The position numbers are program-made. Shown one piece after another: positions 36,001 to 42,000 of a stretch of 64,000 nucleotides of DNA (the first letter of the stretch is position 1; each line of letters opens with the position of its first letter). This DNA is from Simkaniaceae bacterium (GTDB taxonomy: Bacteria > Chlamydiota > Chlamydiia > Chlamydiales > Simkaniaceae): positions 1,912,831 through 1,976,830 of the forward strand of contig CP073762.1 in assembly GCA_018399055.1 (NCBI GenBank), written 5' to 3'.

Positions 36001-39000
36001 CCTCCTGAGAGCCATCACAAAGCTGAACGCTGTCAGGCTGACAGAGCTTTTCCATGTCTTTGATCCAAGCGGCTAGCCGCGCATGCTTCATCTCCATATC
36101 TCCCCCATACCACACAGGAAATACTAGTCGAAGAAAAAAAAGAGGGGAGCTCAGGGCCGAGGCCCTGAGCTCCCCTCCTCTCTCTAAAAAGTTTTTAATC
36201 TATGGAATTCACTCTTTGGTCAATTCTTCGTAAACAAGCTTAGCATATTCTCGGATCCTATTCCACTTGGGGTCAACAACAATTTCTGCATCACTCTCCG
36301 GACGATCTTCACTTGAGTCATAAACATCCACCATATCGTAAAATCTCTTAAGCATCTGATATTGTTTGTCAATCATCTCAATACGCCCTTCATCCCTTCC
36401 CTCAAACACAGCATGCGCCTCTTCTAAAAAATACATGATAGTATTTTCATAGCATGCATAGTCTCTTGGGTTTTTGCGAGCTACCCATTGACAAGTTTGG
36501 TATGTTTTATCCGACATTTCCTTGATCGTATCAATAATCGCAAGAAAAGCAGGGGCTTTTTCTTTCCTTTTCATCGCTACCATCCTTTGAACTCAAACTC
36601 CCCTAGGGGAATGTGCGATTCTTTTAGGTTTTTGTTGACGAGCTTACCCGATTTAGAGACTGCATCAGCACCTTTTCTCTGGATAACATAAGGTTTTCTT
36701 TGCATAGGATTAGGACTTTTTGGATTGCCAGGCATCACTCGCACTAGAACGCACTGCTCACTTGTTGTTCCTGGCTTAATGTAGACCATATCACCACTTT
36801 TCTCGGAGATTTTAACAACGGCATCTCTTGGAAGCCCTTTGGGATTCACTCTTTGGTCAATTCTTCGTAAACAAGCTTGGCATACTCTCGGATCCTATGC
36901 CACTTGGGGTCAGCAACAATTTCTGCATCACTCTCCGGACGATCTTCACTTGAGTCATAAATATCCACCATATCATAGAGTTTCTTAAGCATTTGATACT
37001 GCATATTAGTAAGCTGGATATCGCTATCATTTCTGCTTTCCAAAACAGCATCAGTATCTTCAATAAAATACATGACAGCATTTTCATAACATGCATAGTC
37101 TTTTGAGTTTTTGCGAGCTACCCATTGACAAGTTTGGTACTTTTTATCTGATATTTCCTTGATCGTATCAATAATCGCAAGAAAAGCAGGGGCTTTTTCT
37201 TTCCTTTTCATCGCTACCATCCTTTGAACTCAAACTCCCCAAGGGGGATGTGAGCTTCTTCTAGGTTTCTGTTAATAAGCTTGCCCGATTTAGAGACCGC
37301 ATCAGCGCCTTTTCTCTGGACAACATAAGGTTTTCTTTGCGCAGGGTTAGGACTTTTGGGATTGCCAGGCATCACACGCACCTGAACGCATTGCTTATTT
37401 GTTGTTCCTGGCTTAATATAAAGCATACCACCACTTTTCTCGGAGATTTTAACAACGGCATCTCTAGGAACCCCTTTGGGCCTGCGGAAGGTTTTGAAGC
37501 CTGCTTGATGAAGAATTTTGCGGACTTGATGCTCAGATAGGGATTGAGCGCGGAAGGCCTTGTAAAGCTCTTTATCGAGGCATTTGGTGCTTTTAAATTC
37601 CTGGATGAGGGAAGTGGTTTTAGCTCGCCAGGCTTCCTGATGGGCGGAAATGATTTGGCGTGCTTCAAGCGACTTGGATAGTCTGCTGAGGGTGAGAGAG
37701 GCATTTGCTTCTCGGAGCTCTCTGAAGATCTGGACACCTTTCTTTGTTCCTTTGAGGAGAAGGAGCTCTATTCCAACTTTTCCAGCCATGATTCCCATGA
37801 GTTCTCCTTGCCTTGAGTAGGATAGCTGGTCGCCCCCTTTGACAAGTTCTTGCGCTTCAGGGAACATTTGATAAAGAACCCCTCCAGGACCCTCTTCCTT
37901 GATGTACTGAATGGCGTGCTCAAAGGCTTGGCACACAGCACGTGAGACTTCCGTGGGCTTTGTAGCAAGTGCCCAAAGACCTTGGGGTAGGTTTGCAAGG
38001 GTTGTTTCTGTAAAGATTAAGGTTTCCACCACAGATTCAAAGCCACCTTTGCCCAGCCCTAGAGTAAATCCAGTCACAAGGTCCAAATCATCTTTCCAAT
38101 CTGGAGGAATGGGAGATGCAGAGAATCCAGAACGAGCAAAATCTTCGATCGCTTGATCAAGTTGCCCTGTTTCAAAATAGGCAATCGCTCTTTCCAGGTA
38201 GTCACGCTCGTGATGAGGGTGATTTTTCATGTAATTCGAAAGCGTGAGAATAGCTTCATCGTAAAGACCTATTTCGCATTCGGCGAATCCTTTAGTTCTT
38301 TCGAGTTTTGAGGAGAGCTCTTCTGAGATATATTCTGGGGGGCAGACTTCAAAGAGTGTTTTTATATCCTCAATGCAATCGATAGCATCTCCCCATTCAT
38401 AATGGATACGAGAGCGTTCAAAGTAGGACGCTGGTGCCTGGTGATTTGCAATGCATTGATCAAAAATTGCGGTATATTCGTTCACAACAGCTGATAAACG
38501 CTTTTTTATGAGCGGCATGTGGGTCTCAAAGATGGTATCATACCCCTGAGACTTATTTTCAACGCGGAGTTTTTCATCTTTTAGCTGACCAAGATCACCA
38601 TTCACAAGCTCAATCCACCGCTTAGAACTCCTAATTTTTCTTTGATATTCTCCAGTTTTGATTGTTTCTTTTAAGGGAAGGTTTTGAAGAAGTGTGTTCC
38701 AATTTGCTATCTTTCCTTCTTCTTCTATACGCTGTTTTGTCAATGCTTCATGAACTGTATCCATATATGAAAGGAGTTTATTAACAGAGCTGTGCCTTTC
38801 TTCCATGAAACTTTGATAAAAACCATCTAGAATAATGTCGGAGAATAAAAACACATTCTTTGAGTCATCGAATGCAATGTCCCAATAGCTGATGAATTCC
38901 TCTTCAGGAGATTGATTGTGCAAATAATTGTAATAGACATATTCCCCTTCAAAGGTGGTTCCTTCCCTGCCCTCATCTTCTCTTGTGGTGTGCGAGAAAC

Positions 39001-42000
39001 ACCAGGAATATGCTGGCGACTCATCACTTGCCTGACAATAGCTACATGACAAGCGATCTCTATCGTATCTGTGTTTAGCTGGAAAAGCCCTTTCACATCC
39101 AGGGAGGGGTTGGCTATTCATTGGCATTTCCACCTGGACCCATCGAGGATAGGCATTTTTGTACCAAAGATCTTCCTCGTCATTTGGAGGCAGGTGATAG
39201 GGGAAGGGAACGTTTTTACAAGCACAACTCATTTTATCGATTTCATAAAGGGCTAGGACAGCTAACCACTCTACTTTTTTGATAGATTCCGATCCCCACT
39301 CGCCGCAATGGTGAGGGCAATCAAACTGAGTGGCTTTAGGTTCATTGGCATCATACATCCAGTCGAGCCAAGAGGCATTGAGGAAGAGAGGAAAGAGTAA
39401 GAACAAAAGCCTGGCAATCAAACATTCACCTAAAGTTTACGCACTCGCCAAGAAGCATAAACTCGGTGTGCTTTTGCAACAATTAAAAAATGAGCCCGCC
39501 CAGCTCACCAAGAGCTGACTAATACCACTTCCAGTAAGAAAACTCATAAATTGGCTCAGAAATTCTCATGAAAAATTGAGCATGGAGAGCGAAGCTGGCT
39601 TCGTGCAAGCCAGCGAGATCGAGCGCAAAGCTAGACGGGAAAAGATCGACAAACCTATCCGTAAACTTAAGGTTGACAGAGCACTAGGAGTTATCAACAA
39701 GACTTCGCGGCTAAACTCTGGCTTTTTTGAAAGTTTCAAGATACTCGAGTGCTTTCCCTGTTCCCATGCAAACTGCTAGAAGAGGGTTCGAAGCAACGAT
39801 TACTGGAAGTCCTGTCTCTTTAATCAAGGCCTTATCAAGTCCCTTAATTAGAGCTCCGCCACCAGCAAGGACCATCCCCGTCTCAACGAGATCGGCAGCC
39901 AGTTCAGGAGGACAACGCTCCAAGGTTTCCTTGGTGCAAGCGATGATTTGTTGAATAGGCTCTGCGAGACATTCCCGGATTTCAACAGAGTTGATCCGCT
40001 TGGTAATAGGGAGACCCGCCACTTGGTCACGCCCCCGCACTTCCATTTCAAGCTCGTGATCTCCAAGAGGATAGGCAGAACCGATCGTCATTTTGATCTC
40101 TTCAGCTGTTCTTGGTCCAATCATTAGATTGTAGGTGCGACGCATATAGTTGATGATGCACTCATCAAATTCATCCCCAGCGATACGAATCGATCGGGAT
40201 TCGACGATTCCACCAAGTGAGATAATTGCAATCTCTGTCGTACCACCACCCACATCAATAATCATGTTCGCTGAAGGCTCATGGACAGGGAGGTCGACTC
40301 CAATGGCTGCTGCCATGGGTTCTTCAATAAGGATCACCTCTTGAGCCCCTGCTCTAAGGGCTGAATCTTCAACGGCTCGCTTCTCCACCCCTGTAATTCC
40401 AGAGGGAACAGCAATCAAAATCTTTGGACGGAATAGGCTACGCGATGGGGTCACTCGGGAGATAAGGGCCTTAAGCATCCCTTCTGCGATTTCAAAGTCA
40501 GCGATGACGCCATCCTTCATAGGGCGGACAGCATGAATTTTTCGAGGGGTTTTACCAAGCATTGCTTTCGCTTTATGGCCAACAGCAAGAACGTCACCGG
40601 ACACAGAGTCAACAGCAACCACCGAGGGTTCAGCAAGTACAATTCCTTTTCCACGAACATAAACAAGGGTATTTGCAGTTCCAAGGTCAATTCCGATGTC
40701 ACTTGCAAAAATACCAGTGAAGTGACCGAGTTTATTAATAAATCCTTGTTTGAAGTTCTTAAGGAGGCTTCCCTTTCCCTTTTTTGCGGCCTTAACTTTC
40801 ATTTTTCAATCCTTTTCGATCCAATTGTTCCATGAGATTAAGTCATCATAATGAACAACTGGATATAATTCATCAAGTTTGTAGAAGTTCGAGAACATCT
40901 TCCCAGGTGAGCTTGGTAATCGCCTCATCATCACAGCTCACAATTTTTTTCACGATTCCTTTCTTTCGATTTTGCATTTCTACAATCTTTTCTTCGATCG
41001 TTCCCATTGTCACAAGTTTATAGACAGAGACTGATTCTTTCTGCCCAATACGGTGGACTCGGTCAGTCGCTTGATTTTCAACAGCTGGATTCCACCACAT
41101 ATCATAATGAATGACTGTATCAGCACCTACAAGATTGAGTCCCGTTCCTCCGGCTTTGAGGGAGACGAGGAAAACGGGGATATTAGGATCATTATTAAAT
41201 TCATTCACAATATCGAGACGGTTTTTGCTTGATCCATCAAGATAATTAAATCGAATGCCTCTCTGCTCAAAGTCGGTTCTCATAATCTGCAACATACGGG
41301 TGTACTGCGAAAAAATCACCGTCTTATGCTGCCCTTCAATCAGCGTCTGCAGCAGTTCGAGAAGCATCTCATACTTTGCTGAATCCCCCGCTTCCGCCTT
41401 TTCTTTAGCAAAGATGGCTGGATGACAGCAAATCTGTTTCAGTCGAGTAAGTGTTGCAAGAACATGGATCTGTACTTTATCAAATCCATCTCTCTCAACC
41501 AATTTCATCAGTTCATCACGAGCAGACTCTGCATAGGACTTATAAAGTTCTTTTTGAACATTGGTGAGTTGACAGTGATATACATTCTCACTAACAGGTG
41601 GTAGATCATCCAAAACATCAACTTTCATACGACGCAAAATAAATGGAGCAACCTTTTTTCTAAGGTATTGCAAGTTCTTGGTCTGCTCCTCCCCAGAAAG
41701 GCGCACATATTTCTCAACGAATCTCTCATACGATCCTAAAAACCCTGGCATCAAATAATCGAACAAGCTCCAAAGTTCATCCAGAGAGTTTTCAATCGGA
41801 GTACCAGAAAGGATGACGCGATGCTGAGCTTTAACCAGTTTTACCGACTTTGCATTCCGGGTTCCTCGGTTTTTAATATGCTGTGCTTCATCAAGAATCA
41901 TATAAGAAAAGGTCACCTTGTCATAGGCCTCAATATCTTTTTGGAGAAGGCTATAGGAGGTGATCACTACATCGTAATTTTTAACATTTTTGATCAACTT

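Follow-up and report, generated by a model that had tools for sequence, protein, structure and literature searches.

Polymorphic toxin systems such as CdiA-CT/CdiI and Rhs-CT/RhsI (Zhang et al. 2012, PMC3482391) are the described counterparts of a four-gene locus which lies between mreB and pckG on contig CP073762.1 of a Simkaniaceae bacterium (Chlamydiota; GenBank assembly GCA_018399055.1). The stretch analysed, called the window below, comprises 64,000 nucleotides (nt; positions 1,912,831 to 1,976,830 of the forward strand), and coordinates without further designation refer to it. Like those systems, the locus encodes a large predicted-exported protein with a swappable, putatively toxic C-terminal domain (about 90 amino acids, aa), here termed the tip, and directly downstream, translationally coupled, a putative immunity gene. 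Orphan cassettes of tip and immunity gene start at a conserved junction motif, immunity-only remnants or arrays occur in relatives, and the very same tip is present on Rhs and CdiA-like proteins in other phyla. There are differences, too: the scaffold consists of leader, Cys-rich region, long helices, TPR and pre-toxin region and not of Rhs/YD or filamentous haemagglutinin repeats; VENN or PxxxxDPxGL demarcations are absent, the orphans beginning with (R)PKG(I/V/L)P; and the host is of an obligate intracellular lineage. Toxins of intracellular bacteria usually come without immunity proteins (Zhang et al., PMC3482391), and the tip/immunity family described here is a systematic exception.

A second system for comparison is PT7–PIM7, from PT-TG/LXG toxins of the Bacillus cereus group, where the toxin is likewise a small (~78 aa) C-terminal polymorphic-toxin domain. 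According to Nachmias et al. (bioRxiv 10.1101/2021.10.19.465003), PT7 is a Mg-dependent, non-specific endo-DNase of new topology, toxic to E. coli, yeast and fungi; the exchanges D37A and H47A abolish its toxicity in vivo, and its interface with PIM7 is electrostatic. Firmicutes and Proteobacteria are the sole groups from which they described it. A literature search yielded no paper on a TPR-scaffold polymorphic toxin in chlamydiae, nor on chlamydial interbacterial immunity.

The locus is probably a polymorphic toxin–immunity operon of a signal-peptide-only class with one orphan cassette; the narrower statement, a toxin with its cognate immunity protein, is regarded as highly probable on the strength of the comparisons given below. 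The 735-aa product of the first gene would be exported by the Sec pathway via its N-terminal leader, and its scaffold of TPR and other helices would present or deliver the basic 89-aa C-terminal domain, presumably to bacterial targets. The acidic 124-aa protein, translated right after the toxin, would bind the tip and protect the producer and its kin. A second cassette of 637 bp would be an orphan module, whose co-transcribed immunity gene could protect against a second toxin allele in the population.

Organization of the locus

Open reading frame (ORF) calling in the window showed four − strand genes of the same direction between mreB and pckG, with products of 735, 124, 90 and 124 aa. The features of the locus are:

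37214..39421, − strand: putative scaffold-plus-toxin gene, 735 aa, TTG start
37217..37483, − strand: tip 1, putative C-terminal toxin domain, 89 aa (RPKGVP…EFEFKGW), isoelectric point (pI) 10.2
36846..37220, − strand: imm1, putative immunity protein cognate to tip 1, 124 aa, acidic (pI 4.9)
36577..36849, − strand: orphan tip 2, separate 90-aa ORF, GTG start
36209..36583, − strand: imm2, second putative immunity protein, 124 aa; its central 40 codons represent another allele than those of imm1
36210..37483, − strand: two tandem 637-bp cassettes (tip plus immunity gene), units 37483-36847 and 36846-36210
36138..36181, − strand: predicted intrinsic terminator at the end of the four-gene operon, perfect 17-bp arms (36142-36158 / 36161-36177), then T8

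An earlier sequence-only reading of the window had named these elements, and all of them were present on the − strand, including the terminator with its 17-bp stem and T-run and the two gene overlaps. Toxin stop and imm1 start overlap as ATGGTAG; the GTG start of the orphan tip overlaps the imm1 stop codon (GTGA). A second ATG of imm1 (M4, 37211) follows the toxin stop by 2 nt and the sequence AAAGGA by 8 nt. With this better-spaced AAAGGA it offers an alternative start, and the homologues P0007 and P0008 begin there (P-numbers designate homologous proteins, L-numbers genome or metagenome loci). imm1 may have 121 instead of 124 aa, and both 124-aa ORFs may start at their second ATG. Since a scan of the − strand sequence revealed no terminator-like or promoter-like site among the four genes, they are predicted to form one operon. 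The charges of the products are opposite, the tips having pI values of 9.9-10.2 and their 124-aa partners of 4.9. The 90-aa orphan ORF has a public record, under the name hypothetical protein, from a Simkaniaceae metagenome-assembled genome (MAG).

Tip family and its linkage to the putative immunity gene

Hidden Markov model (HMM) searches of the tip and of the 124-aa protein, by which the earlier reading could be checked, revealed a large tip family and a DUF7945/SCO4402-like partner. An exhaustive profile search with the tip gave 764 representative proteins (clusters at 50% identity) at E ≤ 1e-3, 309 of them at E ≤ 1e-10. Scanning of one genome per species yielded 80 loci with at least 10 phylum-level labels. 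They contain 88 tips with at least 50 aligned residues, and for 80 of these the ORF immediately 3', in the same orientation, was recognised by the immunity HMM; of the other eight, two were at contig ends. According to their labels, 34 loci were chlamydial, 18 proteobacterial, 7 verrucomicrobial and 4 acidobacterial; Cyanobacteriota, Gracilibacteria, Planctomycetes, Fibrobacteria, Myxococcota and others were represented once. Taxonomic labels of MAGs may be wrong: the tip plus immunity pair L042 is on a 2.8-kb contig binned as Candidatus Micrarchaeota, most likely a mis-binned bacterial contig. An immunity HMM made from chlamydial sequences only recovered the neighbours of tips in Cyanobacteriota (E 2.5e-13), Verrucomicrobiae (4e-11), Acidobacteriota (3e-10), Alphaproteobacteria (5e-10) and Leptospira (6e-6), as well as the DUF7945 protein of L006 (5e-3).

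The tip was situated at, or within ~20 residues of, the C-terminus in all 150 matches listed, in proteins of ~80 to 1840 aa. Its carrier in Chlamydiota is the TPR scaffold; carriers elsewhere include an RHS-repeat protein (L035, E 1.5e-24), a CdiA-like protein with DUF637 and haemagglutinin repeats (L070) and a PT-TG protein (L044). Short forms and fragments were added by a word-index search, for which a diverse tip alignment served as query, and so were four members labelled as polymorphic-toxin types, namely Rhs-associated (P0228), Phage_Mu_F (P0240), PT-TG (P0241) and PT-HINT (P0251).

On plasmids of Leptospira interrogans the tip is preceded by the N-terminal half of the Ntox10 model. L008 (plasmid pLiSL14, NZ_CP092169.1 9474-10396) encodes a 192-aa "polymorphic toxin type 10" composed of this half and the tip; an immunity-family ORF (E 1.7e-10) comes after the tip, the toxin gene is located between two integrase-core (insertion sequence, IS) genes, and the arrangement is repeated on three other L. 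interrogans plasmids. The tip was not identified as Ntox10 (PF15520), because of its 193 model positions only the N-terminal 83 match, in the region upstream of the tip. Ntox24, an all-beta domain with Y, H and H residues listed together with Imm53 for chlamydiae (PMC3482391), was considered as well; neither Ntox24 nor Imm53 was matched in Pfam by the tip or the immunity protein.

In the databases, many members of the family consist of a tip alone (80-200 aa) with the partner gene behind it, and the orphan of the window is a leaderless 90-aa ORF overlapping the previous stop codon. Some polymorphic-toxin domains, e.g., Ntox24, occur in toxin–antitoxin systems, too (PMC3482391). The pairs might act inside the producer, in locus stability or stress, as addiction-type modules, with fusion to an exported protein being secondary. 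This appears quite improbable. The toxin gene is first in order, the partner has no DNA-binding domain detectable with Pfam or NCBIfam, and PADLOC gave no match, whereas in type II systems the toxin is cytoplasmic and the antitoxin, the gene of which is usually upstream, binds DNA and regulates its own expression. Furthermore, many of the short forms are contig-end fragments or orphans starting exactly at the PKGIP junction of full-length genes; the full-length forms possess leaders or Rhs- or CdiA-type delivery regions, and the main toxin of the window has a scaffold of 646 aa.

Exchange of tips on a common scaffold

A metagenome scan with the pre-toxin region of a sister scaffold subgroup as query gave 70 loci with 73 scaffold ORFs. 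The tip described here was at the end of 33 of the 73 ORFs and absent from about 40, six of which stop at a contig edge; most others are complete and have different C-termini. In this subgroup, one scaffold is therefore combined with alternative, unrelated C-terminal domains. Seven of the alternative C-termini were scanned against Pfam: one was Ntox50 (E 9.7e-25), two were DUF4258-like (E 2.8e-4 and 0.015) and four were unmatched. When the comparison was limited to scaffold ORFs with at least 400 nt of 3' sequence, the immunity family was found downstream of 28 of the 29 tip-bearing genes and of none of the 28 with other tips (Fisher p = 2e-15). The immunity neighbour thus tracks the tip and not the scaffold, which we take as the defining behaviour of a toxin/immunity cassette. 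An immunity gene directly downstream which co-varies with the tip is, together with the variable C-termini, typical of polymorphic toxins.

The putative immunity protein family

imm1 matched the NCBIfam model SCO4402_fam (NF047838) with E 6.3e-9 and 36.1 bits (cut-off 50) and the Pfam model DUF7945 (PF25656) with E 1.4e-3 and 19.3 bits (cut-off 27); imm2 reached 24.3 bits with SCO4402_fam (same cut-off 50) and had no Pfam match. Although both window proteins thus score below the curated cut-offs, the alignments are nearly full length (residues 16-121 with model positions 10-118/119), and in one proteobacterial MAG a bona fide DUF7945 gene comes after each of two tip ORFs. Intermediate sequences and shared context therefore connect the 124-aa proteins with DUF7945/SCO4402. 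Conserved residues of the family are Q29, W33, Q74, D83, W107 and R111. Comparison of the immunity protein with the PDB, by single sequence and by profile, gave chance-level matches only, and no paper on DUF7945, SCO4402 or 8OWU, a PDB entry discussed below, was found in a literature search.

The last ~40 residues of the immunity proteins (YDSSEDRPESDAEIVADPKWHRIREYAKLVYEELTKE) are almost invariant among alleles which are only 50-60% identical overall, as seen in imm1 (36846-36965), imm2 (36209-36328) and P0012-P0017. This C-terminus may serve as a substrate for recombination, or it may form a functional surface that is kept constant. At some loci two immunity domains are in one ORF (L063:4272-5120, L064:4197-4964, L065:4249-5010 and L085:2360-4660 were listed), and in an Acidobacteriaceae MAG tip and immunity domain are in a single 767-aa ORF, representing a fusion or an assembly frameshift.

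Orphan cassettes, arrays and losses in relatives

Locus L009, from the representative genome of a sister species and with 94% nucleotide identity to the window, also contains a full-length gene, an immunity gene, an orphan tip and a further immunity gene, and shows the same pairing of tip 2 with imm2. Orphan cassettes were present in L015, L016, L021, L030 and L046 as well, one or two in each of L015, L021 (two) and L046, and degenerate ones in L030; L049 has two full genes. These last five loci are chlamydial or carry no label. Cassettes of this kind 3' of a full-length gene, which are characteristic of polymorphic toxins, thus occur in the window (36846-36210), in L009 and in others. In the window, L009 and L021 the orphan is homologous from the first residues of the tip, (R)PKG(I/V/L)P, onwards. 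In the complete genome of Chlamydiales bacterium BSEPT1 (L036:4249-8145) a tip-bearing toxin gene is followed by 11 immunity-family ORFs, four of full length and six N-truncated (93 aa); a recent tandem amplification is indicated, because copies 2 to 11 share 70-100% identity with each other.

L002 is a close relative by amino-acid identity (SNF2 96.6%, mreB 98%, pckG 95%). Between its mreB and pckG are only a tip stump of 52-65 aa, the homology of which begins at window position 37388, inside "VRVMPG", one imm1-type gene and, directly 3' of it, the hairpin terminator. The locus therefore varies among near relatives, and an immunity gene can outlive the toxin gene; an invariant locus at this place in all relatives would have spoken against the sequence-only reading. 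An immunity homologue without an adjoining tip was also found in L005. In the mreB-proximal spacer of L002 (7724-7920) there is an inverted duplication of sequence matching window 39614-39713, which may be the scar of a deletion.

The idea that the locus was inserted into a conserved block was not borne out: no empty mreB–pckG site was seen among the relatives examined, and L002, alone among the relatives in lacking the big gene, retains the remnant of a deletion. As to the comparison with C. trachomatis on which that idea drew, CT709 was confirmed as mreB; CT710 beside it is presumably pckA. Taken together, the linkage of tip and immunity gene, its dependence on the tip, the presence of the tip on Rhs, CdiA-like, MuF, PT-TG and PT-HINT proteins and the recurring orphans support the original view of a toxin/immunity locus with an orphan copy.

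These data bear also on the main rival to an interbacterial role, i.e., a host-directed effector. The toxin would act on the eukaryotic nucleus or cytosol after Sec/type II export, and the 124-aa protein would guard the producer solely against toxin that has folded before export. The organism belongs to an obligate intracellular lineage, Chlamydiota show a huge expansion of the tip family on TPR scaffolds, and PT7, to which the tip is distantly related, is a toxin for yeast and fungi besides bacteria; moreover, TPR, Sel1 and ankyrin scaffolds are typical of the effectors of intracellular bacteria (PMC3482391). Nevertheless, this explanation is considered unlikely, though conceivable as regards the target of the toxin. 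Orphans, immunity genes without toxin (L002, L005) and the 11-copy array of L036 are hard to explain unless the cells meet the toxins of others; the same tip–immunity pair is part of Rhs and CdiA-like interbacterial weapons of free-living phyla; and toxins which intracellular bacteria direct at their hosts usually have no immunity genes (PMC3482391).

Comparison of the two cassettes

The tandem duplicate, estimated earlier at ~640 bp, is a direct repeat; its period is exactly 637 bp, and the two units are ~88% identical over 625 nt. Tips 1 and 2 differ at 13 of 89 residues; by the method of Nei and Gojobori the synonymous divergence (dS) was 0.33 and the nonsynonymous divergence (dN) 0.076 (dN/dS 0.23). 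imm1 and imm2 are 79% identical, and the differences are concentrated in codons 46-85. The two proteins had been described as identical at both ends with a divergent middle; the middle was confirmed, the ends are nearly, not strictly, identical. In the centre (codons 46-85), dS was 1.34 and dN 0.27, in the flanks ~0.1 and ~0.035, respectively (same method).

The divergent centre had been regarded as a sign of co-evolving specificity, which it is not by itself. Positive selection in the centre was rejected, dN/dS being ~0.2 throughout and dS in the centre about 10 times that of the flanks. Since synonymous sites diverge too, the central divergence appears old and not due to recent positive selection. 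The pattern indicates that two pre-existing alleles form a mosaic in the immunity genes, by recombination or gene conversion; either the flanks would have been homogenised by gene conversion, or different allelic cores would have been recombined.

Tips and immunity centres are associated by type: the centre ESRNDSDIQL goes with tips containing …QVRV… / I(N/H)RNLEEAH in the window, L009, L002 and L010, the centre EGRDEGRIEM with …LVRV… / VNKNLKESH tips in the window and L009; these pairings share ancestry and are, as cases, not independent.

The homology of the orphan tip to the main gene begins at the PKG(L/V)P junction, and the junction between the 3' end of the immunity gene and the 5' end of the tip shows a microhomology, CCAAAG(A/G)G. 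Because the 5' sequence of tip 2 is ~90% identical to the main gene, a deletion extending from one direct repeat to the other would join tip 2 and imm2 to the scaffold, by which the cassettes could perhaps be switched.

The scaffold protein

The N-terminus of the 735-aa protein (MIARLLFLLFPLFLNAS) is hydrophobic, being its sole stretch with a Kyte-Doolittle value above 1.4. From this hydrophobicity, and from similar leaders conserved in homologues, we infer a Sec leader. Other trafficking domains were absent in Pfam scans of the protein and its homologues. The predicted layout comprises the leader (aa 1-17), a Cys-rich alpha/beta N-domain (~30-185), a pair of very long helices (187-327), further helices resembling TPR (330-431), a pre-toxin region, likewise helical (443-623), and the tip (647-735). 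The AlphaFold2 (AF2) model of the full protein, made with a 40-sequence alignment, had a predicted local distance difference test (pLDDT) value of 79.3 and a beta-rich tip; the N-domain, which contains eight cysteines at residues 35-141, was modelled at lower confidence, and the two long helices had 60-75 residues each.

A Sec-signal protein with TPR-like repeats had been described in the sequence-only reading. In the window protein TPR was found only below Pfam thresholds (TPR_9, E 3.8e-5, residues 390-430), TPR_1 was matched in 42 of 74 long homologues, and a Foldseek search of the full-length model against the PDB returned generic TPR proteins only. A classical trafficking domain was present in none of the 74 homologues, and PAAR, LXG, TPS, HINT or PT-TG were not detected with Pfam in the chlamydial proteins. 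The pre-toxin region resembles PT-TG in a G-x3-G-K-x-G motif; its membership was rejected, as there was no PT-TG match in Pfam.

Structure of the tip and relation to PT7

No match for the 90-aa tip was found in Pfam and NCBIfam (E ≤ 1), in PADLOC (E ≤ 0.1), or by single-sequence phmmer against the PDB. Its AF2 model was all-beta with a pLDDT of 91.6. The profile of the tip family matched one PDB sequence, 8OWU chain B (hmmsearch E 3.7e-5), and alignment of the profile with the native 78-aa PT7 sequence by hhalign gave a probability of 94% (E 1e-7); the similarity is seen at profile level only. 8OWU is the complex of PT7(D37A) with PIM7, chain D being PIM7, which is identical to the gene product downstream of a Bacillus mycoides PT-TG toxin.

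The similarity to PT7 extends over the whole domain and includes the N-terminal strands, an R-x-R/V-R strand (Arg of VR-V/MR-I) and the C-terminal motif D-x-x-G-N-x-V-x3-S-P-[DE]-A-H-I-P. Both systems combine a basic toxin with an acidic inhibitor. PIM7, however, is beta-rich and of other sequence, and the immunity profile did not match 8OWU chain D. Invariant polar residues of the tips are R37, Y54 and H79 (234 of 235), followed by S45 (96%) and Q50 (94%). The invariance of the first three suggests an active site. As this set differs from that of PT7, substrate, chemistry or metal dependence may be different. A nuclease-type activity, distantly related to PT7, may be proposed for the tip, this being the weakest step of the interpretation.

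Several points weigh against a polymorphic toxin of the kind proposed. D37 of PT7 aligns with Met39 of the tip (97% M) and is not conserved, and the region of H47 is a gapped loop without a conserved His or Asp in the tip family; the loop from D37 to H47 is replaced in the tips by MPGNPxSPNPxQxKPYV. The best 50 of 65 Foldseek matches of the tip in the PDB included none better than E = 2.4 and not 8OWU, and nothing was below E = 0.5 among the matches listed for PDB and BFVD; since the confident model of the tip finds no significant match, the designation as nuclease is weakly based. In the orphan tip, codon 20 (36790-36792) specifies Asp (KSGDM) where 230 of 235 family members (98%) have Gly. 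It is the only Asp among the 235 tips, and the orphan of L009 keeps Gly; tip 2 may be inactive or changed in specificity. No receptor-binding, translocation or self-cleaving domain, which could account for entry into target cells, was detected with Pfam or Foldseek. The evidence on the exchange of tips comes from the sister subgroup, whose scaffolds are 27-30% identical to the window protein over ~330 aa. Finally, the organism is presumably obligate intracellular, with few chances for interbacterial contact.

The absence of any named toxin model in Pfam or NCBIfam, of a structural match in Foldseek and of the catalytic residues tested in PT7 could also mean that the tip is no toxin at all. It would then be a binding or adaptor domain, e.g., for nucleic acid or the envelope, with the 124-aa protein as chaperone or partner and a neutral tandem duplication. 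This is the least probable of the explanations considered here, and only a very small chance is assigned to it. The tip occupies the exact C-terminal slot held in sister proteins by Ntox50 and other toxins; it ends Rhs, CdiA-like, MuF and PT-HINT proteins, the partner switches with the tip, and the three invariant polar residues suggest an active site. A toxin with its immunity protein therefore remains the preferred interpretation.

Operon boundaries and other features of the window

The flanking features on the same strand are:

39489..39509, − strand: weaker terminator-like hairpin 3' of mreB, predicted
39711..40802, − strand: mreB (listed 40802..39711), with an SNF2 helicase gene beyond it
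34352..36115, − strand: pckG (listed 36115..34352)

The hairpin after mreB implies that the toxin operon would have its own promoter within 39422-39488; a promoter of the sigma-70 type was not found on the − strand of this spacer.

An ORF of 1928 aa (28081-33867, + strand) has no Pfam match and seems to contain an internal repeat. The L004 orthologue is only 83% identical, compared with 95-98% for pckG, mreB and SNF2; the ORF is fast-evolving and possibly encodes an effector. A transposase of the Mutator family (IS256-like; PF00872, E 2e-69) is encoded at 8121-9329 (+ strand). Other large ORFs without Pfam match (E ≤ 1e-3) are 399-4949, 5269-6909 and 26367-28088 (+ strand) and 49282-51282 (− strand), with 1516, 546, 573 and 666 aa, respectively.

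Biological meaning

A wider reading may be considered. Environmental Chlamydiota would possess a large interbacterial weapon family of their own, with a Sec-exported Cys-rich/TPR scaffold, interchangeable tips, immunity genes, orphans and arrays, by which co-infecting strains would compete within their host cells. The tip found most often would represent a new class of enzymatic toxin with invariant R, Y and H, more than a PT7 homologue, and the immunity fold of DUF7945 would be new as well. For this joint reading as a whole we see slightly less than an even chance.

The tightly linked pair is widespread in Chlamydiota, and its orphans, remnants and arrays are genomic signatures of a bacterial arms race; the locus suggests that obligate intracellular bacteria fight other bacteria. 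Functions are suggested for a toxin domain hitherto unnamed (764 clusters), for DUF7945/SCO4402 as immunity protein, and for chlamydial TPR proteins now called "hypothetical". The link to the fold of the PT7 DNase, described recently, can be tested; the set of conserved residues is different. With defined genes at hand, competition between chlamydial strains in amoebae becomes testable.

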